Assembly (NCBI RefSeq): GCF_000020025.1
Contig: NC_010628.1
Coordinates: 3,210,001-3,242,000 of the forward strand
Direction: 5' to 3'
DNA from: Nostoc punctiforme PCC 73102
GTDB taxonomy: Bacteria > Cyanobacteriota > Cyanobacteriia > Cyanobacteriales > Nostocaceae
Length of the DNA stretch: 32,000 nt
Both the position numbers and the translations under genes were made by a program. The first letter of the stretch is position 1; every line of letters begins with the position of its first letter. Positions 7,064 through 28,422 of the stretch are shown piece by piece. The notes under the pieces were generated by a model. The model made no database searches. It was not told the DNA's origin and was given only the letters and a program-made list of their open reading frames with translations.

Positions 7064-7617
7064 AATGTGTAGTAATGGAATGCGTAATTAACTGAATTTG
7101 CACCGGATAAGCTAAGGACTAATGCTGTATTCGCGTCTAATCTTAGTTCTCTATTTAAAAAGTAATTAATGGCTAAACCGTCCCCCTGATTTTGACATAA
7201 AATTCTTTCTTTCGTCGTAGCACCGGATTTTAATATTATGGTTGTTGCGGTACTTGCTTCAAGTTGAATTTTTAAATAGCTAATATTTATTGATATTCCC
7301 GTTCCAGGTGCGGCAATAATCGTATTGTCTCCAACAGTGTTGATTGTCCCAGCAATTATTGTGATAGCAGGTCTATCAAAGAGTGTTGCTAGTCTTTGCA
7401 GCAGTCGCTTGAAAAGGCTAATCAGGGTTGCATTAGCAGTGTCGCTATTTGCCGGGATATCTGAAATTGTCCCAATGGCTGAAGAATCACTTGCAGCGAT
7501 ATCCAGTTTTCCGTTAGCCCCAACAGCGATCGCCCTTACCTTGCCATCTGCATCTACCCCGCCTATTACGTGAGTTTGTAAAGTTCCTGTAGAATCATTC
7601 CCATTTTCAAATCCCAT
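7060..7617 (-). CDS. Small tail protein with shared N-terminal module A (185 aa)
   Basis: N-terminal 37 aa (MGFENGNDSTGTLQTHVIGGVDADGKVRAIAVGANGK) match the N-terminus of ORF 8507..8890 at 30 of 37 positions. The C-terminal domain is different. TAATG overlap with the upstream gene at 7617. Confidence 0.6.
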   Translation of the reverse strand: MGFENGNDSTGTLQTHVIGGVDADGKVRAIAVGANGKLDIAASDSSAIGTISDIPANSDTANATLISLFKRLLQRLATLFDRPAITIIAGTINTVGDNTIIAAPGTGISINISYLKIQLEASTATTIILKSGATTKERILCQNQGDGLAINYFLNRELRLDANTALVLSLSGANSVNYAFHYYTL

Positions 7618-8506: not shown

Positions 8507-8890
8507 TTAAGTCAAAGTAACTAACATGAAGATTGTGTCTGTTGCATTATAAGAAATTTCAGCTATTGTGTCGTTACCTGTTGCTTCCAAAGATACCGAA
8601 TCCCCCGGCAAAAATTCGGTTTCAAGAAGCAATCCAGCAGATCCTCCAATATTGGCAACAAAAACCATTTTTGTCCCAGCAGGGATAACATTTTCGTCAC
8701 TGACTTTTTTAATATCGGGTTTTCTTTGTATTCCCGAATCAACAGGTGTAATACTAACACCTTCACCAATTGATTGTATCCTTCCATTTTCGTCAACAGC
8801 GATCGCTCTAACTTTGCCTTGAGAATCTACCCCACCTATTAAGTAGGTTTGTAGAGTCCCTGTAGAGTCGTTGCCGTTTTCAAATCCCAT
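8507..8890 (-). CDS. Small tail protein with modules A+B (127 aa)
   Basis: The N-terminus is paralogous to ORF 7060..7617. The C-terminal 65 aa are paralogous to ORF 8210..8497. Lies 2 nt downstream of the preceding gene. Confidence 0.6.
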   Translation of the reverse strand: MGFENGNDSTGTLQTYLIGGVDSQGKVRAIAVDENGRIQSIGEGVSITPVDSGIQRKPDIKKVSDENVIPAGTKMVFVANIGGSAGLLLETEFLPGDSVSLEATGNDTIAEISYNATDTIFMLVTLT

Positions 8891-8892
8891 AT

Positions 8893-9465
8893 CTACTTAA
8901 GTCTTAAATTAACTTCAGTGAAAGTGAGCGACCAATTACTATTTATATAATTTTGGTCGTAGCCAAGAGGTGGAGTTTCATCAATAATCATTTCTCCATA
9001 TCTAACTGTGGCTAATCTATTGTTGTAAATAAAGCGATCGCCTAATTCCACACTACAAAAGTCAACTACCTTGATTGGGCTGAATTGATTGTATTTACTA
9101 GACTCCGAAATCAGGATTAATTTTTGTAAAACCTCCAGAATTACTCGCTCTTTTTGAATAACTGTTGCTTTAAATCCCCGTTTAATTGTACTTGCACCAT
9201 AGCCAGTACGACTAAAAGTAGTCTTCAAACCTGGGCTATCCCCTAATCTATTTGTTTCTGGTGAATAGTCGGTGAATAATTTTAAATAAACATAGTTATT
9301 TGTGTCTGTTTCTTGATAATGGGTAGGGTCAAATAAATAAAACCATTTAGATGCAATTTGCAAATCCTCAATGACTGCAACGGGAGTTAGTACTAGCAAT
9401 GGAAGTCTGGCTAGTTTTCGCTGACAGTTAATTTGAGCATTGGCGATCGCTTCTAATATGGTCAT
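8893..9465 (-). CDS. Tail-tip protein immediately after the tape measure gene (190 aa), Dit-position
   Basis: ATGA start/stop overlap with the tape measure gene (9462-9465). The distal-tail-protein call rests on position only. Confidence 0.55.
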   Translation of the reverse strand: MTILEAIANAQINCQRKLARLPLLVLTPVAVIEDLQIASKWFYLFDPTHYQETDTNNYVYLKLFTDYSPETNRLGDSPGLKTTFSRTGYGASTIKRGFKATVIQKERVILEVLQKLILISESSKYNQFSPIKVVDFCSVELGDRFIYNNRLATVRYGEMIIDETPPLGYDQNYINSNWSLTFTEVNLRLK

Positions 9466-12400
9466 GATCTTTGTATCAAAACTCCTAAATCATATAATTC
9501 TTTTCTAATATCTGTCACTGTTTGAGTAGCTGCTTTTTTGGCATCATCTCCATTAAAATTATTGACAATCGAGACTGGTACATTTGCCTCCGTTGGTGTT
9601 GATAGTTTTTGTTCTACTAAGGTATTGAGTTTATTCACTGCCTCAATAATTCCCGCTTGCCCCAAAGTATTTAAATCTTGGGAGGATAGTTTTTGTGGTA
9701 GCTTATAACCAAACTCCTGAAACCTACTTAATTGATCCTGACGGAACTTTTCAAAATCAGGGAATTGTAATTGTAAAGATGGAGTTTCAGGATTGATTCT
9801 GTTGGCGACTCGATCCGCTCTAAACTGCTGCAAAGGTTCAAGCGTACCCTCTCCAAGAAAGCGAGATTTGGTTGCTGCAACAAACGCTTCCCCTGTGCTA
9901 CCAACTTCATCTCTCCCTACACCCAGCGCACGGGATAAGGAGCGATCGCGGATATCGCGCAATAACCGCCGTCCTTCCCTTGGGTTAAGAGATTGAGCAA
10001 ATTCTACCTGTGCTTGGTCGCGCTGTAAAAGCGATCGCTCATTAAAACTTTGCTTTTCTAATCCCCCTAGTGTTGATTGAATTTTTCCCTGCTGGTCTAA
10101 CAGTCTCCCCGCGAACTTAGTACTAATTGCTTCCTCTACCTTTGCTTGCAAATTAAGCTGTGCAGCTTCAATACTTTGGGGTGTGGCATTGGGGTCGAGT
10201 TGGGCTTTTGCAAGGTCGGATTGGGCTTGAGCAATACCAGCTTTACTTTGCGCTTGGGATACACGATTACGAATTTTCTCTTGTTCTAATTGTGCTGCTT
10301 GCTGGGCTAAATTTAAATCTAGTACCTGACCTTCTATAGTTAGTTGCCTCTCTAGAGATTGAATTTTAATAGCTGCAATTAGTTGAGCAATGTCTTTTCT
10401 TTGGCGGTCATTTTTAGATAATTCAGAGGCGATTTGCAATTCACCTGTAACAAAATCTACCCGCCCTTTGACGAAGGTTTGAGTGGCTTGTAGTACGCTT
10501 TTTTGCTGGTCGTAAGCTTTGGATACAGCTTCACTCTGTTGGATTTGAATTTGTCCCGCTAGGTTAATTCGCTGGGATGCTAATTCAATATCCTTAACCT
10601 GCTTTTCGATACCCGCTTGCACCTCACGGCGACGGGTAAGGGTTAGCTCAATTTGGGCATCAGTTTGCGCTATTCCTTGTTTTATGTTTAATTCCTTTTG
10701 GGAATTCTCAGCAATTTGAGACTGCTGAACTTTGGAGCGTTCAAGGCGATCGCCCTGTTCTTGTAACAAATCTGATTGCTGTTGCGCCCCTTGTATCTGT
10801 AGCTCAATAGCTTTGATTTCTTCAGGCGATCGCTTATCTCGATTCGCCCTAATTAACTCTAAATTTAACTCCGCCAATTGGCGTTGATTTTCAATCTTCT
10901 GAATTCGGAGTTGAATTGTTTCCCGCTCTAAATTCAACTTGTTAATTTGGGTTTGAGTTGCAAGTGATACTTGCTCTTGCTGCTGAGTTACTGCCAGATT
11001 TTTAACTTTATTCTCGGCAATTTGGGTTTCAATTGCGGCACGCTTCTCTAAGTCTCCAGTGAATTTGAGTTGGTTTTGTAGTCCTGATTCAGTCGCCTGG
11101 TTGAGTACGCCCTGTAATTGATTAGCGGAATTTAGTAACTGCGATCGCTGTTCGATATCTTTGGATTGGGAATCAACACCACTGCTTTGGCGTTGTAAGG
11201 TGAGGGTTTGCAGTTGCGTAGTATTGGCAATGATGCGCTTTTGGCGTTCTTGTTCTAAGTTGAGTAGGCGCTCGACTTCTGCGGCTTCTTGCTGTCTGAG
11301 TTGAGAACGAGCGATCGCAATTTTGTTGCTGAGTTCTACACTGGTTTGACCTGATTTATTGAAGTCTTGAACCAAGTTATTGAGGCGATCGCGGGAAGCT
11401 TTAATCTGAATTTGAGATATCTGGGTTTGGGCATCTCGCTCAGTAATTTGGCGCTCAGACTGACGCGCTTTGATTTGTTCAATCTCAATATTAAATGCCT
11501 CCTGGCGCAATCCTCGCCGCTTCTCCAGTTGGCGATTATCTTCAGCCGTTACCGTTTGCTCGATTTGCACCCTAATGGCGGCTGCTTCTCTTTCTAACTG
11601 TGCCTTACGAACTGGGAATTGAGCATACTCCTTAATCTCAATTTCCTTTTGAATTAGTGTTTCTCTTATGCCTTGGAGTTGAATTTTGGCAATTTCTTTT
11701 TCAGCGTCTTCCGTACTGATTACTCTCTGTTGCTGCTGCAACTTAACTCGTTCAGCCCCTACTTTAAGTTCTTCTGAAATCTGTTTTGAATTCGATTGAG
11801 CAATCTCTGATATTTGTCCGGTAGCTGCAAGGCGATCGCTCTGGGATAACCTAAAGCCTTCCGTGCCATCGGGTAGTTTGATTTTGTCGTCTCTAACTGC
11901 TCTTAACCGTTTTATGACCTCTGCCTCTGCTGCCCCTGTAGGTGCAAACAACGGTTTACCGTCTTGGGTTGGCCCTGCTAGTTGCTCAAATAATCCACCT
12001 TGGTAAGATTCTAAAACCTGTGATTGCAATTGTGTCGCTTCATTTCTTAGAGTAGAAATATCTTTGAGGAATGGGGTAGCTTTGCCTTGGGCATCAAGTT
12101 TAAATTGTTGCCCAAAGTTAGCTTGAGCATTGCCCAAAGCTTGCCCCAAGTTCGACGATTCGGTGATTGCTCTTTTTAGTCCGGGAAGGGTTTCGGTATA
12201 GTATTTTGTAAACTCTTCCCGCCCTGCTTTGAGTGCTTCGTTGCGTTTCTCTAGGGTTTGGCGTTCGGTTTCGAGTAGTTTAATGCGATCGTCAAAAGTT
12301 GCCTTAAGCTCAGGGTCTTTGATACCCTCGGAGACTTTCTTTTGTTCCGCAATATTTTTCTCAATTCCAGAAATTAAATTTTCATTCCTGGCTTTTTGAG

Positions 12401-15400
12401 CATTGAAAATTTGATTTTCCCGCTCTAAATCATCAGCAGTTAGCTTTGTCCCCTTCCTTAGTTTTTCATTGGTTTCTGAAGTTAAACCCAACGCACTACG
12501 GTACTGATTAATTTTTTCCGCAGTGGCTAGCGATTGCTCACCTACAACATCAAGGGCTATTCCAGTCTGACTGAAATTTTGGATTAACCTATCAGATTCT
12601 CTATTTTGTCCAGTTTTGGACACCGCCCCTGCCGGATCTGTAAAGACAGTTGGGTTTGTCGTGAAAGCTGCTAGAGAATTTGCGGCAAGATCAATCGAAC
12701 TTCCAATTGTCCCAGGTATCCCCCCGAAAAATTCCCCAACGCGATCGCCAAATCCTTTTTCTGGCGTTCCGGTTGCACCTTGGCGAATTGCTTCTAGCTG
12801 AGATTTAAACTCCTCTAGTCCCTTAGTAGTTAATTGCCCCTGATCGCCTACTCTCGCCAAGGTTTCACGGAGTTGGTTGAATTGCCCAGTGGTTAGATCG
12901 CCGGATAATCTCAGTTGCTCAAGACGCGATTCTACCTGGGTTGCTGATGCATCGGGGACAATTTCAGCTTTGAATTGCAGTAAGCGTTTCTCCGTCCCAA
13001 ACTGCTTAAATAAATCTGTATCCTGTTTGAGGACTTCCCCTAACCCTGTGGCAGCTTCATTTGCGGCTTTTCGCAAGCCAAATAAATCTTCTCTGAATAT
13101 GGCGATCGCTGCTGCTCCAAGTGCAAGCAATGGGCCAAGCGGGCCAAGTGTACCCAGTAATCCTGAAATTGCATTGCCAGCTACACCAAAACCACCTTTA
13201 AGCAGATTGAGACTGCCAACTACCCCACCCTTAAGGACATTGGCGAGTAGTCCAGAACTACCAGAAAGCAAACCTTGCGCTGTTGCCAGCCCCCGTGTCA
13301 AACCTGTGTTGATAGTCTTGAGGCTGATTTCGGTCGTCAGTAATGTATTAATTGCCCCCAACGGGCCAGTGGTTCCGAATAATACGTTTCTGCCAAATAT
13401 CCGCGTTTGTGCAAGTCCTCGTTCTGCAAGTTCGTCAGCAGTTAAAACTACGGTGTGTGTGGCCGTTGCTGTAGTTGCAGATGCAAGTACGGTGGCTTGA
13501 GCAGCGATCGCCCCTGTTGCTTTTGTAGCTCCCTGTTTTACATTTTCATAAGCGATCGCTACCGTCGCCCCCGCATCAATAGACTTGATATTTTCAAAAC
13601 TAGAGGCTACTGCCTTCCCAACAATATCTGCCTCTTGCTTAATCCGCCCCAATCCAGATGCAAAGGGTTTACCATCAGCCCCTAATATTTGCGGTGGGGC
13701 AAAAGCCCCCACTGCTTCAGCAATCCCTAGACCAACATTTTTGGCACTTTGAGCAACTTCTCCCAAGGGGAGACGCGAAACGCGATCGGCTACTGCCTTC
13801 TTCCCTTGTTCTGCTGCACCTTTGGTATCGAGTCCGGTAAAGCCCGCAATGTTCTTGTTAAATACCTCACCCGCTTTGTTGCGAACTGCGGCGGCAGCTT
13901 TGGTGACAATATTTTGTTTCTCAAGCGCTCCCGTTGTTGCCTCTACACCAAGTCGAAACCGTTGGTCAATGCCAAATAGTTGTAATGCAACTGCTACCAG
14001 CCCTTTGCGCTGCACAATCAACTCTTTGATGACTGCCAACTCTTTCCCTAGTTGACCGGATAGCAGCAGTGAGATTGCCCTAACTTGCAAATAAGTTGAT
14101 GCCAGGGTGAGCATCGTTTGAAATAGGATCGTTACCGCGCTTGCTGTGGCGCGGGTCGTAATCTGAAATACGATAAACTGTCCAACTGCTTGCTTAACTG
14201 GTTCTGGTAGTCCGCTAAAAAAGTTAGCAATTTTTTCTAATACATCAATACCAGGTTCAAATACTGGGGCAACAGAAGCGGCGATTTTAATGATTAATTC
14301 TTGGAACTTGTTGGCGATTTGTTGAAATTTGGAGATGCGATCGCCTGTAGCAATTTTAAATACTTCATCTAAACTACTAGCACTTGCACTATTGACACTT
14401 TGCAAAGTAGATGAAAGCTTTTGCCCGTCTTGAGCGAGCAGTGCCAATACTGTACGGAATGCTACCTCTTCCGGGAAAATATCTTGCAATACCTTGGCAT
14501 TTCCACCGGCTGCTTTATTGAGATCGATCAGCGCTTGGGTAAAACCTTTGGCTTGAATTTCTGCTTGGTCAAAACGGATCTTTTGTCCATTGAGTGAGAG
14601 TTTATCAAGTGCCTTTTGCGCTTCTGGTGTCTTTTGAATGATAGTCCCAGCAATTCGCTGTACTCCGGTTAGTGCGGTTGCAGTATTCACCCCTTGAGTT
14701 GTTAGCACTGCTGTACTTGCGGCAAGGTCAGTTAATCCAATTCCTGCTGTTTTGGCGCTCGTCGCGGTTTGTCCAAATCCCAGTGATAACTCTTGGATTG
14801 TTGTCAAACCAGATTCAACAATACTATTTAAGATTGCGGCTGCTTTGCCGGATTCACCGGCTGATAACTGGTAGGCGTTAAGGGTTTTAGTCAGGAGTCG
14901 CAACGTTTCACCAGGATCGGCAGACGATCCACCAGCTTGCCCAATACCCACCAGCTTTAGCCCATTTGTTAAAACCTGTTGTGAGTCGGCGGCTTTGGTG
15001 AATCCTGACGATAAAACCTCGTACTGTCCGGTTAATGCATTTGTAGAGGAGACAGTATTGTTTAATTGCTTGTTTACAATATCCTGAACTTGGAAGGCGT
15101 TTTGTAACTGCTCTTGCTGGTTGGCGCGGAGAGCATTACCTGCTGCGTCAAAGTTAACGTTACTTCTAAGAATGGTTCCCGCACGGGACGCTGCTTGTTC
15201 AAATCTTCCTAAATTTTGTACTGCCGATATCGCAAAGGCATCTAATGAGGCTTCACTACCTTTAACGGCATCAGTGAGAGTGTAAAAGTCCTCAATACCC
15301 TGAGTACTAACCCCAGACGATCGCAACAAATCTAAAGTTTGCGGTATCCGAGCGTACACTGCCGCCGCATCCTGTACGCCCTTAGCAAAGGTGAGCGCCT

Positions 15401-15686
15401 GCCCACCAAGAAAGGTAATGTCAGACAGTGCAGAGAAAGTTTTAAGCGCCTTTGAATTGACATCAGCTAACTTTCCAATTGCGCCACCAAACTTTTGGGC
15501 ATTCTCAGTACCAAGGACAAATTGACCAATTGAAGACTCTGAAGCTTTTTGTAACCCTTTGAATCCCGCAGCTAGTGCAGCAGTACCGATGGTTAACCCT
15601 GTAAAACCAAGAGAAATATTGTTGACGGTAGCGATCGCGCCGTCATCAACTGCTTTCAATCTTAGGGTGGTAGTGGTATCTGCCAT
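9462..15686 (-). CDS. Tail tape measure protein (2074 aa)
   Basis: Giant ORF. The N-terminal third is A/G/T-rich and contains a hydrophobic glycine-zipper stretch (GGVVGSLNLLKGGFGVAGNAISGLLGTLGPLGPLLALGAAAIAIF). The rest is a Q/E/K/R/L-rich coiled-coil-like sequence. Coupled tail-tip genes follow. No sheath-sized ORF is present in the window. Confidence 0.9.
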   Translation of the reverse strand: MADTTTTLRLKAVDDGAIATVNNISLGFTGLTIGTAALAAGFKGLQKASESSIGQFVLGTENAQKFGGAIGKLADVNSKALKTFSALSDITFLGGQALTFAKGVQDAAAVYARIPQTLDLLRSSGVSTQGIEDFYTLTDAVKGSEASLDAFAISAVQNLGRFEQAASRAGTILRSNVNFDAAGNALRANQQEQLQNAFQVQDIVNKQLNNTVSSTNALTGQYEVLSSGFTKAADSQQVLTNGLKLVGIGQAGGSSADPGETLRLLTKTLNAYQLSAGESGKAAAILNSIVESGLTTIQELSLGFGQTATSAKTAGIGLTDLAASTAVLTTQGVNTATALTGVQRIAGTIIQKTPEAQKALDKLSLNGQKIRFDQAEIQAKGFTQALIDLNKAAGGNAKVLQDIFPEEVAFRTVLALLAQDGQKLSSTLQSVNSASASSLDEVFKIATGDRISKFQQIANKFQELIIKIAASVAPVFEPGIDVLEKIANFFSGLPEPVKQAVGQFIVFQITTRATASAVTILFQTMLTLASTYLQVRAISLLLSGQLGKELAVIKELIVQRKGLVAVALQLFGIDQRFRLGVEATTGALEKQNIVTKAAAAVRNKAGEVFNKNIAGFTGLDTKGAAEQGKKAVADRVSRLPLGEVAQSAKNVGLGIAEAVGAFAPPQILGADGKPFASGLGRIKQEADIVGKAVASSFENIKSIDAGATVAIAYENVKQGATKATGAIAAQATVLASATTATATHTVVLTADELAERGLAQTRIFGRNVLFGTTGPLGAINTLLTTEISLKTINTGLTRGLATAQGLLSGSSGLLANVLKGGVVGSLNLLKGGFGVAGNAISGLLGTLGPLGPLLALGAAAIAIFREDLFGLRKAANEAATGLGEVLKQDTDLFKQFGTEKRLLQFKAEIVPDASATQVESRLEQLRLSGDLTTGQFNQLRETLARVGDQGQLTTKGLEEFKSQLEAIRQGATGTPEKGFGDRVGEFFGGIPGTIGSSIDLAANSLAAFTTNPTVFTDPAGAVSKTGQNRESDRLIQNFSQTGIALDVVGEQSLATAEKINQYRSALGLTSETNEKLRKGTKLTADDLERENQIFNAQKARNENLISGIEKNIAEQKKVSEGIKDPELKATFDDRIKLLETERQTLEKRNEALKAGREEFTKYYTETLPGLKRAITESSNLGQALGNAQANFGQQFKLDAQGKATPFLKDISTLRNEATQLQSQVLESYQGGLFEQLAGPTQDGKPLFAPTGAAEAEVIKRLRAVRDDKIKLPDGTEGFRLSQSDRLAATGQISEIAQSNSKQISEELKVGAERVKLQQQQRVISTEDAEKEIAKIQLQGIRETLIQKEIEIKEYAQFPVRKAQLEREAAAIRVQIEQTVTAEDNRQLEKRRGLRQEAFNIEIEQIKARQSERQITERDAQTQISQIQIKASRDRLNNLVQDFNKSGQTSVELSNKIAIARSQLRQQEAAEVERLLNLEQERQKRIIANTTQLQTLTLQRQSSGVDSQSKDIEQRSQLLNSANQLQGVLNQATESGLQNQLKFTGDLEKRAAIETQIAENKVKNLAVTQQQEQVSLATQTQINKLNLERETIQLRIQKIENQRQLAELNLELIRANRDKRSPEEIKAIELQIQGAQQQSDLLQEQGDRLERSKVQQSQIAENSQKELNIKQGIAQTDAQIELTLTRRREVQAGIEKQVKDIELASQRINLAGQIQIQQSEAVSKAYDQQKSVLQATQTFVKGRVDFVTGELQIASELSKNDRQRKDIAQLIAAIKIQSLERQLTIEGQVLDLNLAQQAAQLEQEKIRNRVSQAQSKAGIAQAQSDLAKAQLDPNATPQSIEAAQLNLQAKVEEAISTKFAGRLLDQQGKIQSTLGGLEKQSFNERSLLQRDQAQVEFAQSLNPREGRRLLRDIRDRSLSRALGVGRDEVGSTGEAFVAATKSRFLGEGTLEPLQQFRADRVANRINPETPSLQLQFPDFEKFRQDQLSRFQEFGYKLPQKLSSQDLNTLGQAGIIEAVNKLNTLVEQKLSTPTEANVPVSIVNNFNGDDAKKAATQTVTDIRKELYDLGVLIQRS

Positions 15687-15691
15687 AGGAT

Positions 15692-15804
15692 AAGGCAGGA
15701 GGCAGAAGGCAGGAGGCAGAAGGTTTATCCTGTTGCGCTGGAATAGGTGGCAATTGGAAGTATTTGCTACTCCCTTCTGCCCTCTGCCCTCTGCCCTCTG
15801 CCTT
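15692..15804. repeat. Inverted pair of STRR-like heptamer arrays forming a long imperfect hairpin
   Basis: Left arm 15692-15723 is AAGGCAGGAGGCAGAAGGCAGGAGGCAGAAGG. Right arm 15772-15804 is CCCTTCTGCCCTCTGCCCTCTGCCCTCTGCCTT. Position-by-position pairing gives 27 Watson-Crick pairs, 2 G-T pairs and 3 mismatches over 32 nt, with a 48-nt loop. The hairpin ends 5 nt from the tape measure start codon. Confidence 0.85.
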
Positions 15805-15867
15805 TATTCCACTACAGTTTAGCTAGTGGTTGTATAAAGCACTAGAGGCTAGTCAATATTGTCATAT

Positions 15868-16044
15868 TTAAGATCCACTTTCGACCAATTCATAGAGAAG
15901 CGATCGCACTTTTTCTTGCCACTCTGGAATCGCTTGAATTTTTTCTAAAACAGATGGTTCAATTCTCAAGCTCAGTTTTGCGTCTCTGGGTTCTGCTCTG
16001 TCTGTAGTAAATTTTCCTTGATTATTTCGTATTTTTTGCATCAT
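15868..16044 (-). CDS. Putative ribbon-helix-helix (CopG/Arc/MetJ-type) DNA-binding protein, 58 aa (below the ORF-track cutoff)
   Basis: Hand translation gives MMQKIRNNQGKFTTDRAEPRDAKLSLRIEPSVLEKIQAIPEWQEKVRSLLYELVESGS, with the stop at 15868-15870. KLSLRIEPSVLEKIQAI fits an RHH beta-strand plus helix 1. GGAGGTGA lies directly upstream of the tandem ATGs (16048-16052). The gene is divergent from the 16227 gene. Confidence 0.5.
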   Translation of the reverse strand: MMQKIRNNQGKFTTDRAEPRDAKLSLRIEPSVLEKIQAIPEWQEKVRSLLYELVESGS

Positions 16045-16076
16045 TCACCTCCAATTACCTCTATTGTATGTCAGAA

Positions 16077-16090
16077 CCACGTCCCCGTGG
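16077..16090. promoter_or_regulatory. Operator-like 14-mer, copy 1 (CCACGTCCCCGTGG)
   Basis: The 5-bp arms CCACG/CGTGG are inverted around TCCC. It lies just upstream (in the minus sense) of a TACAAT-like -10 (plus-strand ATTGTA, 16063-16068) for the RHH gene. It matches copy 2 at 11 of 14 positions. Confidence 0.4.
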
Positions 16091-16148
16091 TATAGAGTCT
16101 TTTGATGGTAAATGGTTAAAAATACAAAATTATTTATGCAAAACTCTC

Positions 16149-16177
16149 TTTACATCCATGTCCCCACGGATTATAAT
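16149..16177 (+). promoter_or_regulatory. Near-consensus sigma70-type promoter (TTTACA - 17 nt - TATAAT) with operator-like 14-mer copy 2 in the spacer
   Basis: The -35 is TTTACA at 16149-16154 and the -10 is TATAAT at 16172-16177, with a spacer of exactly 17 nt. The spacer contains CCATGTCCCCACGG (16156-16169). The inverted repeat CATCCAT/ATGGATG (16153-16159 / 16176-16182) brackets the -10. An AAGGAGGTGA Shine-Dalgarno sequence (16213-16222) follows, 7 nt before ATG 16227. Confidence 0.55.
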
Positions 16178-16226
16178 GGATGCATGAGGGAAAAAGTTAC
16201 ACCCTCGAAATTAAGGAGGTGAGTAA

Positions 16227-16421
16227 ATGAGTCAATCAGGAAATGGAAAAAAAGAAGATGTTAAGCCGTCGGACATTGATATCTTCGAGAAGGTTGAAAA
16301 CGAAAACCCATTAACCGAAGACCAAAGGTGGTTCAAAGAGAACCTTGGTACAGGTGAACGGGAAATCGAGATCAACCCACCTGAGCTAGATGGTTCCGAG
16401 GATGAACCTCAAGAAGGCTAA
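16227..16421 (+). CDS. Small strongly acidic protein (64 aa; 19 D/E vs 7 K/R), candidate DNA-mimic/anti-defence protein
   Basis: Has an ideal SD (GGAGG, 7-nt spacing) and its own strong promoter, with a terminator downstream. The charge count was taken from the track translation. The function is inferred from composition and context only. Confidence 0.6.
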   Translation: MSQSGNGKKEDVKPSDIDIFEKVENENPLTEDQRWFKENLGTGEREIEINPPELDGSEDEPQEG

Positions 16422-16431
16422 TCCATAGTGA

Positions 16432-16539
16432 GGCAGCGCGGTCTTCTCCCAAAGGGAGAGGCTAACGCCTTTCCTTCGGAACGCTACGCGAACGCGGAGC
16501 GTCTCGTAGAGAAGGGGGTTTCCCCCAGGAGTGACTGCC
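16432..16539 (+). repeat. ~108-nt multi-hairpin element (dispersed cyanobacterial small repeat/MITE-like, or a structured RNA)
   Basis: The closing stem is GGCAG (16432-16436) / CTGCC (16535-16539). Five short hairpins lie inside it: TCTCCC-AAA-GGGAGA (16445-16459); TTCC-TTC-GGAA (16471-16481); CGCT.CGCG-AA-CGCG.AGCG (16482-16501); TCTC-GTA-GAGA (16502-16512); and GGGGG-TTT-CCCCC (16514-16526). It is CG-rich relative to its flanks. Confidence 0.5.
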
Positions 16540-16554
16540 GAACCACGAAGTGGA

Positions 16555-16582
16555 GAAAACCCCTACCCCAATAGGGGTTTTC
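16555..16582. terminator. Intrinsic-terminator-like hairpin with A-tract/T-tract (potentially bidirectional)
   Basis: GAAAACCCCT (16555-16564) pairs perfectly with AGGGGTTTTC (16573-16582), giving a 10-bp stem and an 8-nt loop. The GC core is followed by TTTT. It lies inside the GTG-started N-terminal extension of track ORF 16550..16927. Confidence 0.5.
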
Positions 16583-16615
16583 AATGCTTTACCCATTTTA
16601 TCAAATTCAGCGAGT

Positions 16616-16927
16616 ATGAATGATTGCACTATTGTTTATCCAAGCTACTTCCGAATTTTTGAATGCAGAGTAGGGCGCTGGTTCATTAAAGATACAGAAA
16701 TTTTCATAGGGACTGAAAACCCAATCAAAGATAATGATATTGCTGCGCTTTATGGCGTTACCGAGCAAGAGGTGGTTATCAACCTGTTCCGTGTCAATGG
16801 CGGGAAATCCGGTTTTTATCTCGCAAATTTGAAGGATAAAGGATATTACTACTGTGGGCAAAACAGGGAAGACCTAAAAGCCAAGCTGCGAACGCTTGGC
16901 ATTGGGCGCGAAGATCCGATCTCCTAA
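16616..16927 (+). CDS. Hypothetical protein (103 aa from ATG 16616; the track gives 125 aa from GTG 16550)
   Basis: In-frame ATG at 16616, downstream of the terminator-like hairpin. No family recognised. It ends 1 nt from the stop of the convergent 60-aa gene. Confidence 0.5.
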   Translation: MNDCTIVYPSYFRIFECRVGRWFIKDTEIFIGTENPIKDNDIAALYGVTEQEVVINLFRVNGGKSGFYLANLKDKGYYYCGQNREDLKAKLRTLGIGREDPIS

Positions 16928-16928
16928 A

Positions 16929-17111
16929 CTACCGCTTGTATTGCTGTTCTATTTCTTTGTCTTTTTTTAGTACGCCTTCCAGTTGCCTTGCGGCATCATC
17001 TGCTGGTTGGCGTTTTAAGTATTCGCACCCCATAAACATCACAAGTAGGGCGATCGCCGCACCCAGCGCTACCCATTGTTTTTTAGAAATATTTTTTAGG
17101 TCAAAATTCAT
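16929..17111 (-). CDS. Small single-pass membrane protein (60 aa)
   Basis: Hydrophobic segment WVALGAAIALLVMFMG, followed by Cys and a highly charged C-terminal tail. Could be a holin-like, lipoprotein-like or small-toxin-like peptide. Lies first downstream of terL. Confidence 0.5.
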   Translation of the reverse strand: MNFDLKNISKKQWVALGAAIALLVMFMGCEYLKRQPADDAARQLEGVLKKDKEIEQQYKR

Positions 17112-17322: not shown

Positions 17323-18954
17323 TTAACTAAACAATTTATGCAATTCTTCCATCTCAGAATTAGTCTCAGCTTGCAATGCCGTAGCCGCGTCTTGCGGCAC
17401 TCCTCCCAATTCCATTGGGTTCGTTAGGGCAATAATTACGGCTTCCGAGTCTGGGCTTCTCCCTAATCTGGATTTGGTTTTATCCTTGGGTTCACAGAAG
17501 ATTTCATCTTTGGTATTCGTACTATATCTTGTAGCAGTCAAATCTTGGAATACATACTCTTCATTTTCCAGAGGAGCGATCGCTATTCTCCCACCCATCA
17601 ATAGTTCTCGAAACTGCCAGTACAACTCTGCCTTGAGGTTAGTAAATTTCTGCTTTGGTTCCTCTTTTTGTTTTTTCTTCTTGTAGCTGGGGACATCCCC
17701 AAAACGACAAGGCAAGGCTTGATACCCGGTTTTTTTGAGTTTAGCGAGTGTCCCAGCGCCAACTCCGGTATTATCCACAGCAATTGAGTAACCAGTACCA
17801 AGTAGCTTAATTTGACTTGCTGCAATATCGGCGGCGCGTTCTGTGTCGAGTAAGTCTCCCTTGGTGGGGTGGATTTGCACTTCGTACAATACTGGCCCGC
17901 GTAGCAGTGCCAAAGCGTGAGGATCGCCGCCGTCGCCAACATCTAAGCCTAATCTCCAAGGGTAACGCTTGGCGATCGCATCCCAATATTGTGGATTTTG
18001 ATCGTAGAGCGATCGCGCTTGTTTGAGTAGGGTGAGTAGGATGATGCCGTCTGCTGCATCTTCTGCGTATTCACCCATCACCCGCCCTTTCCAATATGCT
18101 GAAGTTTCAAACTTCTCTCGCCGGACTCGTTCTATCCAATCAATTGAGATTGCGCCGGGGATGCGATCGCGCGGGAATTCTGGCGGCCACTCTTGCTGTG
18201 GTTTAATTTCTCCATCTTCATTGATGATATGTTCGGCTACTTCAGGTTTTAATCTGTAAACGCCATCAGCACACAGTTCATAGGCCCACGAAACATTAGG
18301 GTGACTGAACGCAGAAACAGTCAGGCAACGCTTATCTAGTTTACAAGTCTTAGCAAATTGCGACTGCGGATCTACTGGGTTCCCTATCCTCAATCCCCTA
18401 TTATCTGAGCCAGTCAAACAAGCAATAAACCCGTTATCAATCTGTGGTGTTATCCCGTCCGCTTCATCCTCAATCAGCAATTGCTTTTGTCTATGCTGAC
18501 CCTGAAAGGAATTCTCTGAATAATCACGACTAGTTATGCCAAATGCGTACACAGTCTCAGAAAACAGCAGTTGCATAATGTCGCATCTACCGCCCAATTT
18601 GGTTTTGTGCAAACCGTGAATTTTTCGCAACTCTGCCCACAGTATCCACTTAACCTGATCTTCACTAGGTGCAGTAGTAATTGCCACACCGCCCACGCAA
18701 AACAGGAAATAGATTACAAGTAATGAAGCGATAAAGCTTTTCCCGGTTCCGTGTGCTGCTTTGACATTGGTGATAGGGCGATCGCGTACTGATTCAGCTA
18801 TTATTGTTTGCTCGTTAGTTAGCTCAATACCCAGTTCGTTTTTAAAAAAACCTACCGGATCGTCAGCGTACTGGGGAAAGGGGATAGGACGCGAACCACC
18901 ATGAACTAGTGCGGCATATTTAGATGACGAGGTTTTAAGTTTGGCTAGTCCCAT
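17323..18954 (-). CDS. terL: Terminase large subunit
   Basis: Walker A-like AAHGTGKS and Walker B-like LLIEDEADG. The C-terminal RNase H-like nuclease region begins LGLDVGDGGDPHALAL. Size is 543 aa. Sits in a cluster with the small subunit. Confidence 0.9.
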   Translation of the reverse strand: MGLAKLKTSSSKYAALVHGGSRPIPFPQYADDPVGFFKNELGIELTNEQTIIAESVRDRPITNVKAAHGTGKSFIASLLVIYFLFCVGGVAITTAPSEDQVKWILWAELRKIHGLHKTKLGGRCDIMQLLFSETVYAFGITSRDYSENSFQGQHRQKQLLIEDEADGITPQIDNGFIACLTGSDNRGLRIGNPVDPQSQFAKTCKLDKRCLTVSAFSHPNVSWAYELCADGVYRLKPEVAEHIINEDGEIKPQQEWPPEFPRDRIPGAISIDWIERVRREKFETSAYWKGRVMGEYAEDAADGIILLTLLKQARSLYDQNPQYWDAIAKRYPWRLGLDVGDGGDPHALALLRGPVLYEVQIHPTKGDLLDTERAADIAASQIKLLGTGYSIAVDNTGVGAGTLAKLKKTGYQALPCRFGDVPSYKKKKQKEEPKQKFTNLKAELYWQFRELLMGGRIAIAPLENEEYVFQDLTATRYSTNTKDEIFCEPKDKTKSRLGRSPDSEAVIIALTNPMELGGVPQDAATALQAETNSEMEELHKLFS

Positions 18955-19518
18955 CTATCCAAAAGGATTGGAAATATCCAGCCTAGTAATAACACAGTCT
19001 TCTTCGTAAGTTCTTAAAAATTCCCATGCTTGCTTGTTCCATCTAGCATCAGCAAGTGCGTTGTGTTCGCCTTTGTCTTGTTTTGGTAATTCTGGATCGC
19101 CTAGCTGTTTACACCATTGCTTGATGTCGTTGGCGTACATTGGGAACCCTTTGGGAAGGTCAATCATTGCCCCAAATAACTGACAGAAGGCCACCCAATC
19201 GTAATCAGCATAGTATCCCCAAAATTCTGGCTTCCACCCTTCCTCAAAATGTGGCTCTTTGGGATACCAGCTTAGAAACCTGACAATACTGGTAGCGATC
19301 GCCTGTCTTGTTTTCCATCGATCGCTACCAGTGCAAGTTAAAAAGTCGCCTTCTAAGTGAGGGAGAACGTTTGCTTTAACCCAATTACTTGCTCGACTGA
19401 AATCACATTCAGCATTTTGAAAATATAGCTCACGCCCATCTTCGGCAACTATGCCAATTGAAATAAGCTCTATTGTACGACCATCTTCAATAAATTCTGT
19501 ATCTAGCCAGTAGTGCAT
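18955..19518 (-). CDS. DEDDh 3'-5' exo(ribo)nuclease, Rv2179c-like
   Basis: The N-terminus MHYWLDTEFIEDGRTIELISIGIVAEDGRELYF closely matches the Rv2179c family N-terminus as I remember it (DTEFIEDGRTIELISIGVVAEDGRE). Further acidic motif YADYDW and H-x4-D motif HNALADARW. Abuts the terL start. Confidence 0.8.
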   Translation of the reverse strand: MHYWLDTEFIEDGRTIELISIGIVAEDGRELYFQNAECDFSRASNWVKANVLPHLEGDFLTCTGSDRWKTRQAIATSIVRFLSWYPKEPHFEEGWKPEFWGYYADYDWVAFCQLFGAMIDLPKGFPMYANDIKQWCKQLGDPELPKQDKGEHNALADARWNKQAWEFLRTYEEDCVITRLDISNPFG

Positions 19519-19808: not shown

Positions 19809-20402
19809 TTAATCTGGTTTACCAATCGTTCTCAACTCTTCTTCCATCCTCCCTATACCCTCACCAATTACTCTTGCTTGCTCTGGTGTTGCTACACCTT
19901 CAGCCAACAATAATTGCACCGCATCAAGTACAGGAATATCTTTAGGATACAACCGTAGTCGCTTCATTAATTTTTCTAACGCTGACAATTTATCATGCAT
20001 CGTTACCGTTGTTGTGGTGGTAACTCCGTCTTTACTTAAAGTTTTGGATACTGTAATACTTTTTACCGAAGCCTTGGCGCGATCGCCCCACTCCTCAGAC
20101 TTCTTGATTTTTATGTTATCGCCATCGTACTCTAAGATATCAGTGATCCTTGAAAGGGCGATCGCTGCTACCTCAGCAATAATTTTTACCTCAGACAGTC
20201 CCGCAATTTCCCCTAGATAGGCTTGTATCTTAGTGTTTCTTAGTAGCGCACAAGCGCTTGCAGCAGCGGAGTTATCGTTTTTGACATTGTATCCTGCTCT
20301 GATATATGCACGAGTTTTATTGAGGTCTTTGACGTACTCGTGACAAAACCTCAGTTGCAAGTCTGTTAATTCTTGTGGGTTAGTTTTCTTATCCCCAGGC
20401 AT
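19809..20402 (-). CDS. terS: Terminase small subunit (Terminase_2-like)
   Basis: The N-terminal LTDLQLRFCHEYVKDLNKTRAYIRAGYNVKNDNSAAASACALLRNTKIQAYL fits the small-terminase HTH pattern (LT.KQ..F..EY....N...A...AGYS). Same strand and cluster as terL. Confidence 0.85.
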   Translation of the reverse strand: MPGDKKTNPQELTDLQLRFCHEYVKDLNKTRAYIRAGYNVKNDNSAAASACALLRNTKIQAYLGEIAGLSEVKIIAEVAAIALSRITDILEYDGDNIKIKKSEEWGDRAKASVKSITVSKTLSKDGVTTTTTVTMHDKLSALEKLMKRLRLYPKDIPVLDAVQLLLAEGVATPEQARVIGEGIGRMEEELRTIGKPD

Positions 20403-20503: not shown

Positions 20504-20860
20504 ATGGCTAGTTGGTCAACAATCGACAGGGAAAGTGAGTTCTATTCAATCTTTGGTGAGGAAAGAATACCTATACTTTCTATAGTTCCAATCATCCCAA
20601 GAGTTGCAGGATCGCCGCCGTGCTACGTAGTATTAGGGCGTGAACTACCGCCACACATGGTAGAACAGCTAGCCATTAAATTGTTTGATGTGTGGCGACC
20701 AGAATGTGAGTCATTGCAAATGGCGACTGACTACATATTGAAAGGACTGCCATTAAAAACCAGTCATTTTAATGGGTGCGGGACGGATGATTATTTTCAA
20801 ATGCAGATGGGAACAGCTTTAAACGCTGCAATCCATTTTGCTTACAGCGATCGCCCATAA
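20504..20860 (+). CDS. Hypothetical protein (118 aa), plus-strand cassette gene 1
   Basis: Opposite orientation to all flanking virion genes. Its stop codon lies inside the left copy of the 25-nt inverted repeat. No family recognised. Confidence 0.5.
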   Translation: MASWSTIDRESEFYSIFGEERIPILSIVPIIPRVAGSPPCYVVLGRELPPHMVEQLAIKLFDVWRPECESLQMATDYILKGLPLKTSHFNGCGTDDYFQMQMGTALNAAIHFAYSDRP

Positions 20861-20871
20861 CAAGCGATCGC
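20847..20871. repeat. 25-nt HIP1-N9-HIP1 element, left copy (GCGATCGCCCATAACAAGCGATCGC)
   Basis: Perfect reverse complement of 21754-21778. Each copy can also fold on itself, because the two HIP1 octamers are self-complementary (8-bp stem, 9-nt loop). Confidence 0.85.
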
Positions 20872-21201: not shown

Positions 21202-21753
21202 ATGGCAGAAGAAGGAGTATGGGTAGTTTCTTGGACGACTCCAGAGTTTGAGCCAATTGTTAGGGTTTCCAAAAACGATCAGGAAGTTTCACTATCTTCG
21301 TTTGCAGCTACCCAACACGCGATCGCTATTTTTAATGCTGCTGCTTACGCCGAATCAGAAGTGGCGCTATTTAAGGCTTTAGTCCCAAATGTGCCTAAAG
21401 GATTTGGTAAGCCTAGCAAAGATGTACAAATGGCATTGATGATGCTAAAAATGCTACGAGATAAACGGGAACCTTTGCCTAGTAATATTAGCGGTATTTT
21501 TGGATTTAATACTCAAAAACCTTTAGTAGAGATTGATTACGGAAAGTTTAAATTACAGTATGAATTAGATGAAGTCAGGTTTCACGCTGCATCACTACTA
21601 GAAGCAGCAGAAGCGGCGAGGTTTGATGCCTTCTGGTTTAAGTTTGGCAACCAAGAGTTAGGATTAGAAGAATTAGAAATACTTGGCATTGTTCAAAAGT
21701 ATCGTCTTTACAAACAGAAATACTCAATTGAAGCAATGTTCAAAAAGTCTTAA
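21202..21753 (+). CDS. Hypothetical protein (183 aa), plus-strand cassette gene 3
   Basis: ORF inside the inverted-repeat-bounded segment. The right repeat copy starts 1 nt after its stop codon. No family recognised. Confidence 0.55.
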   Translation: MAEEGVWVVSWTTPEFEPIVRVSKNDQEVSLSSFAATQHAIAIFNAAAYAESEVALFKALVPNVPKGFGKPSKDVQMALMMLKMLRDKREPLPSNISGIFGFNTQKPLVEIDYGKFKLQYELDEVRFHAASLLEAAEAARFDAFWFKFGNQELGLEELEILGIVQKYRLYKQKYSIEAMFKKS

Positions 21754-21778
21754 GCGATCGCTTGTTATGGGCGATCGC
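21754..21778. repeat. 25-nt HIP1-N9-HIP1 element, right copy (GCGATCGCTTGTTATGGGCGATCGC)
   Basis: Perfect reverse complement of 20847-20871. Sits between convergent genes 21202..21753 (+) and 21787..22173 (-). Confidence 0.85.
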
Positions 21779-28400: not shown

Positions 28401-28422
28401 TCTAAACAGTACCGTTCCCACG

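Follow-up and report, generated by a model that had tools for sequence, protein, structure and literature searches.

A predicted two-gene operon with an acidic first cistron on mobile elements of filamentous cyanobacteria

Why should a small gene for a very acidic protein lie between phage late genes, pointing the other way? The question arises from a 32,000-nt stretch of the Nostoc punctiforme PCC 73102 genome (NC_010628.1, positions 3,210,001–3,242,000; assembly GCF_000020025.1), here called the window. The gene belongs to a plus-strand cassette flanked by two minus-strand structural genes, those for the large terminase subunit TerL (17323–18954) and the tape measure protein (9462–15686). 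An earlier note, made from the letters of the window, described a self-contained unit of promoter, gene and terminator, classed it as a phage moron, and proposed that its product is a DNA mimic or anti-CRISPR protein. The orientation against the structural genes and the reading as an independently promoted accessory gene both hold. The self-containment does not: a conserved 103-aa gene begins 33 nt past the hairpin that was taken to end the unit, and a scan of the window found no promoter between the two.

Comparison with relatives makes the acidic ORF the first cistron of a two-gene operon that is conserved on cyanobacterial mobile elements. The cassette is an accessory operon of phages, plasmids, and defence loci in filamentous cyanobacteria. 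Its predicted layout comprises, in order: a promoter; an operator within the promoter spacer; a 5' stem-loop; a perfect Shine-Dalgarno sequence; the acidic ORF of about 64 codons; a GC-rich hairpin; and an ORF of about 103 codons (Table 1). A small regulator gene lies nearby.

Table 1. Features of the cassette, in window coordinates
Feature	Position	Strand	Remarks
Divergent 58-aa gene, putative repressor	15868–16044	–	ORF; ribbon-helix-helix (RHH)-like by eye only
Operator copy 1 (putative), CCACGTCCCCGTGG	16077–16090		on the side of the regulator's own promoter
Sigma-70-type promoter (predicted)	16149–16177	+	–35 TTTACA 16149–16154; 17-nt spacer; –10 TATAAT 16172–16177; 11/12 match
Operator copy 2 (putative), CCATGTCCCCACGG	16156–16169		within the promoter spacer
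5'-terminal stem-loop of predicted transcript	16185–16207	+	arms GAGGG 16186–16190 and CCCTC 16202–16206
Shine-Dalgarno sequence, AAGGAGGTGA	16213–16222	+	4 nt 5' of ATG 16227
Acidic 64-aa protein gene	16227–16421	+	ORF; 19 D/E and 7 K/R, net charge –12
125-nt small dispersed repeat	16429–16553	+	MITE-like hairpin element that encloses a second, nested element
Intercistronic hairpin, GAAAACCCCTA-CCCCAA-TAGGGGTTTTC	16555–16582	+	11-nt arms 16555–16565 and 16572–16582; 6-nt loop
103-aa partner gene, second cistron	16616–16927	+	ORF; 21 homologs

Codon comparison marks the acidic ORF as a genuine protein-coding gene, kept by purifying selection. Its dN/dS ratio against Nostoc relatives is 0.03–0.07, and the window copy differs from that of locus L001 by 14 synonymous and 3 non-synonymous changes. 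The size and composition given in the earlier note are correct. Twelve close homologs were found, and a profile search of 1.84 billion proteins returned only three small relatives. The family proteins can be aligned along an N-terminal xQSNGNG, hYE, a W, TGERE, and an acidic tail; net charge over the last 60 residues ranges from –8 to –18. An AlphaFold2 model places one helix at residues 31–40 and leaves the rest as coil, at low confidence (pLDDT 65.6, pTM 0.25); the alignment behind it holds 13 sequences only, so the model does not prove disorder.

As the earlier note had it, the acidic protein resembles nothing known. Pfam returned nothing at E ≤ 0.1, the best PHROGs match was an unannotated family (E = 0.083), PADLOC and NCBIfam gave no match, and a PDB profile search gave nothing relevant. 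The proposed DNA mimic or anti-CRISPR function finds no homology in these five collections. The protein shares the strong negative charge of Ocr, ArdA, Arn, Ugi, and AcrIIA4, without similarity to them in sequence or fold in these searches; the profile searching that the note had suggested matched no known mimic.

The second gene is no less distinctive. Beyond the homologs counted in Table 1, it occurs at 46 further metagenome loci and 8 IMG/VR loci, and its products have 24 invariant residues. The AlphaFold model is beta-rich (pLDDT 71.8), and neither sequence nor model has a match in Foldseek, PDB, Pfam, NCBIfam, PHROGs, or PADLOC. The protein contains the pattern GFY..(10)..YCG, which we take to resemble the GIY-YIG motif. 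Assignment as a GIY-YIG nuclease was dropped: there is no Pfam match, and no room past the motif for the catalytic Arg and Glu.

Of 48 informative distinct loci, 38 combine acidic ORF, hairpin, and the gene of about 103 codons in one predicted operon; the median gap is 69 nt, and the pairing extends to partner identities as low as 35%. That the acidic gene is so strictly paired with one conserved partner suggests that two proteins act together, which the first reading of the sequence had missed. The partner gene stands without the acidic ORF in the other ten loci (for example L154, L147, and L133), its conserved residues kept. Within Nostoc the acidic gene is 95–98% identical and the partner 69–88%; the two genes thus have different histories, and give no clear sign of an interface that evolved in close step.

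Could the unit nonetheless be a monocistronic moron, its hairpin terminating efficiently and the 103-aa gene separately expressed or silent? The hairpin is strong, T-rich sequence follows it in many members, and the second gene's Shine-Dalgarno sequence is weak in the window. Against this, only 24–55 nt separate the hairpin from the second start codon across members, with no promoter found there; the gene order is kept in those 38 loci; and the second gene, with its invariant residues, is well conserved. The monocistronic reading seems very improbable. No plus-strand terminator was found 3' of position 16927.

The hairpin itself is a recurrent feature. Of 34 distinct regions between the two cistrons, 31 contain a GC-rich hairpin with a T/C-rich tail (median z = –3.0), its structure kept and its sequence varied. 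In the window it forms a perfect 11-bp stem, as the earlier note's terminator-like hairpin implied, but the terminator scan made no call, because the T run sits inside the stem. The hairpin is probably an attenuator or partial terminator, as judged from its sequence and placement. It is not a dispersed repeat, for it occurs in cassettes only.

The promoter deserves similar scrutiny. Hexamer agreement alone is not rare: the window holds two 11/12 promoter matches where 0.76 are expected, and 20% of null sequences reach two. Support for the near-consensus promoter proposed earlier comes instead from position. The –10 hexamer is position-conserved across 25 non-redundant cassettes, and a TTGAC-type –35 hexamer is present in most. 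The claim stands, on sequence evidence.

Just downstream, a stem-loop begins 1–9 nt past the –10 hexamer in all 25 non-redundant family members (5–9 nt in 22 of them). The stems, judged sequence by sequence since a MAFFT alignment misplaced the 3' arm, show compensatory changes: GAGGG/CCCTC; AAGGG/CCCTT; GGGAAC/GTTCCC; and GTAGGAAC/GTTCCTAC. The Shine-Dalgarno sequence that follows is perfect in the window, as first described, and kept in nearly all members. A leaderless 12-codon upstream ORF (ATG 16184 at the predicted +1, stop 16220–16222) is unlikely to be coding: in L001 its frame is broken by a 1-nt indel, and in L003 there is no ATG.

The operators tie the cassette to its neighbouring gene. 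The 14-mer occurs twice in the window, against 0.05 expected by chance. Elsewhere too there are two copies per locus, spaced 78–80 nt, and they are restricted to loci with the 58-aa regulator. That regulator has 16 homologs, all from Nostoc, other Nostocales, or metagenomes; its gene always adjoins the acidic gene and a partner of about 103–106 aa, together with two GTCCCC operators. Loci L003 and L181 carry a 72-aa regulator instead, and a different palindrome, CCCGGTTAACCGGG, at the same place in the promoter spacer. Four regulator types are swapped between cassettes: the unclassified 58-aa; 72-aa; HTH_26; and a MAGRKKLDR..HARV type. The small regulator gene beside the operon is thus exchangeable from cassette to cassette, each type accompanied by its own putative operators, in agreement with the regulator-operator logic first proposed for the divergent gene and the 14-mer. 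The accompanying assignment of that gene to the ribbon-helix-helix class found no backing in Pfam (nothing at E ≤ 10), in NCBIfam, or in the PDB (no relevant match to a five-sequence profile), and none of the 16 homologs has a Pfam domain. The sole regulator with a verified helix-turn-helix domain is that of L131 (HTH_26, E = 3.5e-18).

Where is the cassette found? It lies beside TerL in four phage-like genomes: the window; L001; L181/L182; and L185/L186. Its orientation relative to TerL in the window and L185 is the reverse of that in L001 and L181. Further cassettes reside on ten cyanobacterial plasmids, and genes for RecD/TraA helicase, DNA cytosine methyltransferases, and nucleases are among the neighbours of plasmid copies. 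One adjoins a telomere resolvase gene, one is near a SocA_Panacea gene, one lies inside a CRISPR array, and others are beside host genes; no terminase is near the plasmid, host-gene, or CRISPR-array copies. Partner-only copies occur in an HsdR-YgjP-[gene]-GmrSD restriction operon, beside a PIN gene, and within or next to CRISPR arrays. Family members are also associated with cas genes, and the cassette is linked to CRISPR arrays of DR5 type. Among cultured phages, no DNA similarity to the region and none to the partner protein was found.

These contexts bear on two simpler views of the cassette. Like a phage moron in the lambda/HK97 sense it has its own predicted promoter and a hairpin and runs against the TerL and tape measure genes around it, and its position and orientation vary among homologous TerL loci; no cassette-free relative was retrieved, and no flanking repeats that might explain mobility or inversion were found. 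It differs from a moron in being bicistronic rather than a single promoter-gene-terminator unit, in forming a three-gene module (regulator plus bicistronic operon), and in occurring also on plasmids and at chromosomal defence loci. The proximity to TerL in four different phage-like genomes might alternatively signal element housekeeping, either a packaging or genome-end function tied to terminase or a small expression regulator, with no role in conflict. This is quite unlikely: plasmids, host-gene neighbourhoods, and a CRISPR array also carry the pair, far from any terminase gene; its orientation relative to TerL is not fixed; and it has its own predicted promoter and putative repressor.

We favour, at a probability of roughly 0.4, a conflict module in which an over-produced acidic protein would bind or neutralise its partner. 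The regulator would bind both 14-mers and repress its own promoter along with the cassette promoter, so that steady-state expression is low and a burst follows when repressor is absent. The 5' stem-loop and perfect Shine-Dalgarno sequence would give strong output of the acidic protein. The intercistronic hairpin would pass only part of the transcripts to the second gene; such partial read-through would leave the acidic protein in excess. The acidic, largely disordered protein would then bind and neutralise, or otherwise control, the folded 103-aa partner. In the last and weakest step, the pair would serve prophages and plasmids as a conflict module: toxin-antitoxin-like; abortive infection; or exclusion defence. 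Purifying selection, the alignable acidic proteins, the conserved pair and hairpins, the failure to find a promoter between hairpin and second gene, operator/regulator co-variation, and mobile or defence-linked contexts are consistent with this proposal.

Among known systems, tripartite toxin-antitoxin loci with a separate regulator offer the nearest parallel. Examples are omega-epsilon-zeta of plasmid pSM19035 and paaR2-paaA2-parE2 of Escherichia coli O157 prophages; PaaA2 has 63 residues. The cassette likewise combines a dedicated small putative repressor; a first protein that is small, acidic, probably disordered for the most part, and devoid of a DNA-binding domain; a second protein of about 100 residues; carriage by prophages and plasmids; and a neutraliser expected in excess. 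Its two small genes are adjacent and co-oriented, the upstream product being acidic and, in a low-confidence model, disordered. The mostly coiled model with a single helix recalls disordered antitoxins.

The differences are substantial. Neither cassette protein has sequence or fold similarity to a toxin or antitoxin, and neither resembles any such family or any defence family in Pfam, PHROGs, PADLOC, PDB, or NCBIfam (nor, for the partner, in Foldseek); in particular, the downstream protein falls in no toxin superfamily in Pfam, NCBIfam, PADLOC, PDB, or Foldseek. The regulator gene, divergent or upstream, forms its own transcription unit and is exchangeable. Type II toxin-antitoxin pairs are normally translationally coupled, and a 55–105-nt gap with a hairpin, which replaces that coupling here, is unusual. 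Partner-only copies are frequent, whereas a toxin should not occur without its antitoxin; ten of 48 loci with the partner alone and its residues kept do not fit easily with a toxin dependent on this antitoxin. An intervening hairpin does have a precedent in ToxIN, a type III system, where the antitoxin part and the toxin gene are separated by a terminator-like hairpin that fixes how much of each is made. The cassette shares that arrangement and differs in its upstream element, a protein whose gene is under selection at the codon level rather than an RNA repeat array.

A different reading of the same parts is an anti-defence burst. On entry into a naive cell without repressor, a flood of acidic protein, driven by the strong promoter, 5' stem-loop, and perfect Shine-Dalgarno sequence, would inhibit a nucleic-acid-targeting host defence (restriction, CRISPR I-D/III-D, or a RecBCD-like system) by DNA or RNA mimicry or by direct binding; the 103-aa protein would act as co-factor or as a further inhibitor, and the regulator would then shut the operon off in the manner of Aca proteins. 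The acr-aca and other repressor-gated anti-defence loci resemble the cassette in their strong promoter with repeats for a small putative regulator, small acidic first gene, mobile setting, and burst-then-shut-off logic. The protein's strong acidity, the exchangeable regulators with their operators, the helicase, methyltransferase, and nuclease genes beside plasmid copies, and the linkage to DR5-type arrays all speak for such a role.

So may the hairpin. The window-type hairpin is partially similar to the reverse complement of DR5 repeats (14 of 16 nt), and that of L001 matches the reverse complement of the L129 repeat over 30 columns (p < 0.002). The ATTGAAAC handle is missing, and more distant family hairpins lack DR5 similarity. 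RNA anti-CRISPRs (Racr) and solitary CRISPR repeat units (PMC10651486) provide the comparison class for 16555–16582; membership calls for repeat mimicry that includes the crRNA handle, and the hairpin does not show it.

Several observations weigh against an anti-defence burst, which we regard as possible though doubtful. No anti-CRISPR, Ocr, or ArdA family matched in PHROGs, Pfam, or PDB, and the acidic-protein model, at its low confidence, is not compact. The cassette's regulator gene does not lie downstream within the operon. All the acidic proteins belong to one homologous family locked to one partner, without known Acr or Aca homology, unlike the variable Acr proteins that accompany a conserved Aca. 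Partner-only copies sit inside host defence operons, and the cassette lies among structural genes, not in the early region. Moreover, CRISPR arrays of these cyanobacteria are often broken up by DNA insertions (bioRxiv 10.1101/2020.04.14.041012), and the link to CRISPR may therefore be a coincidence.

Defence and toxin-antitoxin loci are very numerous in Nostoc and its relatives, yet we are aware of no counter-defence factor of their phages or plasmids that has been characterised by experiment; a brief literature search on such factors turned up nothing beyond a reference to predicted type III-D anti-CRISPRs. A bolder and unlikely version of the anti-defence reading is that the cassette represents the first such family of heterocyst-forming cyanobacteria, the over-produced acidic protein, with or without its partner, blocking DR5-type (I-D/III-D) CRISPR or restriction. 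If so, traces of the interaction between cassette and defence would survive in the DR5-like hairpin and in the copies that lie within CRISPR arrays.

Whether its role is defence or counter-defence, the module is a ready candidate for experiments, with Anabaena PCC 7120 or Nostoc punctiforme as host. It combines two new protein families with predicted swappable repressor-operator pairs, 5' stem-loop, and attenuator hairpin, and it is compact and widely spread, with copies in prophages and plasmids and within or adjoining restriction and CRISPR loci. The promoter-operator sets could serve as tight expression switches for cyanobacteria.

One part of the unit as first described has another origin. 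The tail of about 108 nt after the acidic ORF is highly structured, as claimed (–80.3 kcal/mol, z = –5.8), but it belongs to a mobile repeat insertion and lies outside the conserved unit. The 125-nt element is a MITE-like small dispersed repeat inserted between ORF and hairpin; it is missing from L001–L007, L128, and L134, and among homologous cassettes only the window has it. A riboswitch or small RNA is ruled out by this absence from all relatives. Rfam at the gathering score gave no hits in the whole window, and at an E-value threshold only chance-level hits in 15700–17000 (E of at least 0.23); a tRNA scan gave nothing relevant. A 15-mer of the repeat has 122 genome matches: 44 contain the full element, nearly all in cyanobacteria, and 78 do not. 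A 21-mer had no matches in IMG/VR. L093 carries the outer element without the nested one. The 125-nt element resembles the small dispersed repeats of Nostoc genomes (Elhai et al. 2008, Genome Res 18:1484, as cited in PMC3116915) in being short and hairpin-forming, in its many dispersed copies in Nostocales, in nesting, and in its absence from orthologous sites. Short-read contigs of the same strain break at the 125-nt repeat.

The acidic gene, located between the genes for the large terminase (TerL) and the tape measure protein and on the strand opposite to theirs, had been described in an earlier note as a self-contained single-gene unit. It has company: a 103-aa partner gene follows, and no promoter-like site was found between the hairpin and the partner ORF in the window. 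The protein database has 21 homologs of the partner, and further copies were found in metagenomes (46 loci), in IMG/VR (8 loci), and on 10 plasmids of cyanobacteria. In 63 loci that together encode 50 distinct partner proteins, a strongly acidic ORF of 59-71 aa (net -8 to -18 over the last 60 residues) precedes 38 of these proteins at a median gap of 69 nt; 10 lack it, and for the other 2 the upstream sequence is too short to judge. All 12 close homologs of the window acidic protein that could be placed lie upstream of a partner gene. This evidence indicates that the unit is a two-gene operon, here termed the cassette. That it is truly monocistronic is improbable, less likely than either functional reading weighed below (protein binding or anti-defence).

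Features of the cassette and its phage-like surroundings (window positions)
Feature	Position	Strand	Remarks
Tape measure gene	9462-15686	-	2074 aa
Divergent gene, putative regulator	15868-16044	-	58 aa
-35 element	16149-16154	+	TTTACA
-10 element	16172-16177	+	TATAAT; 17-nt spacer; 11/12 promoter match
Shine-Dalgarno	16213-16222	+	AAGGAGGTGA
Acidic ORF	16227-16421	+	64 aa; 19 D/E, 7 K/R
Repeat-element insertion	16429-16553		125 nt; from alignment with locus L128
Hairpin	16555-16582		perfect; 11-nt arms
Partner ORF	16616-16927	+	103 aa; starts 33 nt after hairpin
Large terminase gene (TerL)	17323-18954	-	
Exonuclease gene	18955-19518	-	
Small terminase gene	19809-20402	-	
Portal gene	25752-28472	-	
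Major head protein gene	29768-30904	-	

The elements that the earlier note had listed for the first cistron are all present: near-consensus promoter, perfect Shine-Dalgarno sequence, acidic ORF, and hairpin. Comparison with relatives shows the 64-aa ORF to be a genuine gene: in codon comparisons with four of them dN/dS is 0.03-0.07, and the window and L001 (one of the retrieved loci, numbered L) differ at 14 synonymous and 3 non-synonymous positions. Its product has 12 protein homologs (62-97% identity), and all the named ones are from Nostoc. Searched by profile, 1.84 billion representative proteins yielded only three small relatives; the other four matches, to several short stretches of long proteins (1069-3752 aa), are taken to be compositional. 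The acidic protein has no match in Pfam, PHROGs, PADLOC, NCBIfam, or PDB families, and it, the partner, and the 58-aa regulator all lack a described family. The AlphaFold2 model of the acidic protein (13 sequences; pLDDT 65.6, pTM 0.25) shows one helix at residues 31-40 and coil elsewhere. Family-wide, the acidic proteins align through an N-terminal x-Q-S-N-G-N-G, a hydrophobic-Y/F-E motif, a Trp, T-G-E-R-E, and an acidic tail.

The start position of the acidic ORF is not ATG in at least nine cassettes: it is ACG in L146, L150, L151, L152, L153, L174, and L184; ATA in L137 and L185; and ATT in L183. These codons stand at the usual distance 3' of a perfect Shine-Dalgarno sequence and 5' of the conserved x-Q-S codons. 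An in-frame stop lies just upstream of the ACG in L146, the one case checked.

Two 11/12 promoter matches occur in the window versus 0.76 expected, which is not significant alone; the promoter call has weight because it is conserved among relatives. Non-coding architecture was compared over 25 non-redundant cassettes. In most of them the -35 is of the TTGAC(A/G) type and the -10 is TATAAT-like, with 17 nt separating the two. In 22 a stem-loop starts 5-9 nt 3' of the -10, where the transcript is predicted to begin, with a perfect Shine-Dalgarno sequence downstream. The 5' stems show compensatory changes (GAGGG/CCCTC, AAGGG/CCCTT, GAGAG/CTCTC, GGGAAC/GTTCCC, GTAGGAAC/GTTCCTAC), and their folding z values are mostly -2.5 to -7.7. 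A stem of at least 6 bp separates the two genes in 31 of 34 distinct intergenic regions (median z -3.0); its structure is kept and its sequence varies across the family. The hairpin has a T/C-rich, TTTCC-like tail, with the second start codon 24-55 nt beyond. From what is known of 5'-terminal stem-loops and intrinsic terminators, the 5' stem-loop would stabilize the mRNA, and the hairpin would attenuate transcription into the partner gene.

The predicted transcript start is also the ATG of a 12-codon ORF (MREKVTPSKLRR; 16184-16222), whose TGA stop is 4 nt upstream of the main ATG. Most relatives keep 'ATGAGGG' at this point, and the reading frame is not kept (a 1-nt deletion in L001; ACA in L003). 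The 5' stem-loop of L193 (ATGAGAG...CTCTCAT; 3766-4000, minus strand) has a second, perfect hairpin in its loop, AAAAGTCTGAGCGGAAG...CTTCCGCTCAGACTTTT, apparently a further small repeat insertion; the outer stem is undisturbed.

The 'structured tail' of the earlier note is indeed strongly folded (z = -5.8), and does not belong to the unit: the fold reflects a 125-nt repeat element that homologous cassettes lack. Every one of these has its hairpin within about 10 nt of the acidic stop codon, and the gap between the two genes is 61-76 nt in nine close cassettes versus 194 nt in the window. The outer part of the element reads GAGGCAG[CT]GCGGTCTT...GGGGGTTTCCCCC...GTGACTGCC. A 15-mer from it has more than 120 matches in the genome collection; 44 of the 122 read contain the whole element, nearly all cyanobacterial (including Nostoc, Tolypothrix, Halotia, Moorena, and Crocosphaera), and the remainder are chance matches in other phyla. 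L093 carries a near-identical outer element without the inner 68 nt, and other copies contain related inner pieces, so the insertion in the window consists of two elements, the second nested inside the first. Contigs from short reads of the same strain break off within it, 118-182 nt upstream of the partner gene. The insertion is consistent with the small dispersed repeats reportedly described in Nostoc by Elhai and colleagues in 2008 (cited in PMC3116915).

The divergent gene and promoter-spacer repeat had been read as regulator and operator, which the distribution of the 14-mer CCANGTCCCCRYGG supports. It is restricted to loci with a homolog of the 58-aa gene, with exactly two copies per locus, 78-80 nt apart: the promoter spacer holds one, and the other lies on the side of the divergent gene. 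The label 'RHH' is still a guess, since the 58-aa protein has no match in Pfam, NCBIfam, or PDB. Other cassettes have other candidate regulators: a different divergent gene (72 aa) in L003 and L181, with the palindrome CCCGGTTAACCGGG in the same promoter spacer; an HTH_26 protein in L131; and a co-directional 63-75-aa 'MAGRKKLDR..HARV..' protein in L136, L198, and L199. The 58-aa-type regulator and operators are joined to quite different alleles of the pair in L193 and in the Nostoc sp. UHCC 0926 plasmid L191, so regulator-operator unit and cargo recombine. Among known repressor-gated accessory modules, this architecture stands as a distinct variant.

The cassette adjoins TerL in the window, L001, L181, and L185; the order is homologous TerL, cassette, portal in L001 and L181, and in the window and L185 cassette and TerL converge. 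Other settings are a prophage edge (L003) and the vicinity of a telomere resolvase (L131) or a SocA_Panacea gene (L006). Plasmid cassettes lie beside genes for RecD/TraA helicase, DNA cytosine methyltransferase, and HNH and GIY-YIG nucleases. Partner genes without the acidic ORF lie beside a PIN gene (L158), before Uma2 genes (L133, L187), and in an operon row in L154 (127-6329), where the order is HsdR (type I restriction R subunit), YgjP-like metallopeptidase, partner (after a 3-nt gap), and GmrSD_N (type IV restriction). In L197 (pANACY.03, 4001-7566), such a gene, a distant homolog, has a WYL gene as its neighbour and csx18-cas1-cas2 at a distance of 1.7 kb.

Three loci touch CRISPR arrays with DR5-type repeats (PMC4916379): in L136 (1022-4720) a 2.1-kb segment with the whole cassette lies between repeats 21 and 22; in L133 (2201-6353) repeats flank the partner gene; and in L129 (5732-6000) the partner gene begins 26 nt past the last repeat. 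Array fragmentation is reported to be common in such cyanobacteria (bioRxiv 10.1101/2020.04.14.041012), so this link receives only moderate weight. The anti-defence role proposed in the earlier note is favoured by the CRISPR links, the plasmid neighbourhoods, and burst-type regulation. It has neither homology nor structural support, and is less likely than the protein-binding reading below.

The hairpin itself (window 16555-16600; L001 10204-10250) resembles the reverse complement of the DR5 repeat (CCCCAATAGGGGTTTT versus CCCTAATAGGGATTTT), and therefore has sense orientation on the late-gene strand. Alignment of the L001 hairpin with the L129 repeat spans 30 columns (p < 0.002 by shuffling). 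The ATTGAAAC handle of the repeat is absent from the window-type hairpin. L133 has the same hairpin inverted, co-oriented with its CRISPR array.

The anatomy of the cassette is well supported; its function is not. The preferred reading, with a probability of roughly 0.4, is a two-protein mechanism in which the acidic protein binds or controls the partner, as in the tripartite toxin-antitoxin or abortive-infection modules that the cassette resembles. This is suggested by several features of the system: an acidic protein always paired with the partner, likely disordered, and expected in excess; a dedicated repressor; and mobile-element and defence-island contexts. The main evidence against a toxin-antitoxin-like module is the frequency of partner-only copies and the lack of a toxin-like fold. 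A housekeeping role is improbable, ranking below both protein binding and anti-defence.

The window is phage-like cyanobacterial DNA, and the palindrome GCGATCGC is abundant in it. Genes on the minus strand (9462-31877) stand in an unusual order: head, portal, small terminase, exonuclease, large terminase, [cassette], tape measure, tail genes. A 60-aa ORF (16929-17111, minus strand) lies between the cassette and TerL and is predicted to encode one hydrophobic helix (WVALGAAIALLVMFMG); it recurs immediately 3' of the partner gene in L188-L190, contigs with an identical partner protein. Between the tape measure start and the 58-aa gene, tandem heptamers AAGGCAG/GAGGCAG and the complement CCCTCTG form an imperfect palindrome with 32-nt arms (15692-15804), and a 94%-identical copy of one arm occurs inside the portal gene region (27435-27470). 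A 109-nt direct repeat (7509-7617 and 8782-8890; 80% identity) is located at the 3' ends of two ORFs of the tail region, both on the minus strand (7060-7617 and 8507-8890). Finally, perfect 25-nt inverted repeats (GCGATCGCCCATAACAAGCGATCGC and complement; 20847-20871 and 21754-21778) enclose 882 nt with a 183-aa ORF (21202-21753, plus strand), which may be a small mobile or invertible segment.
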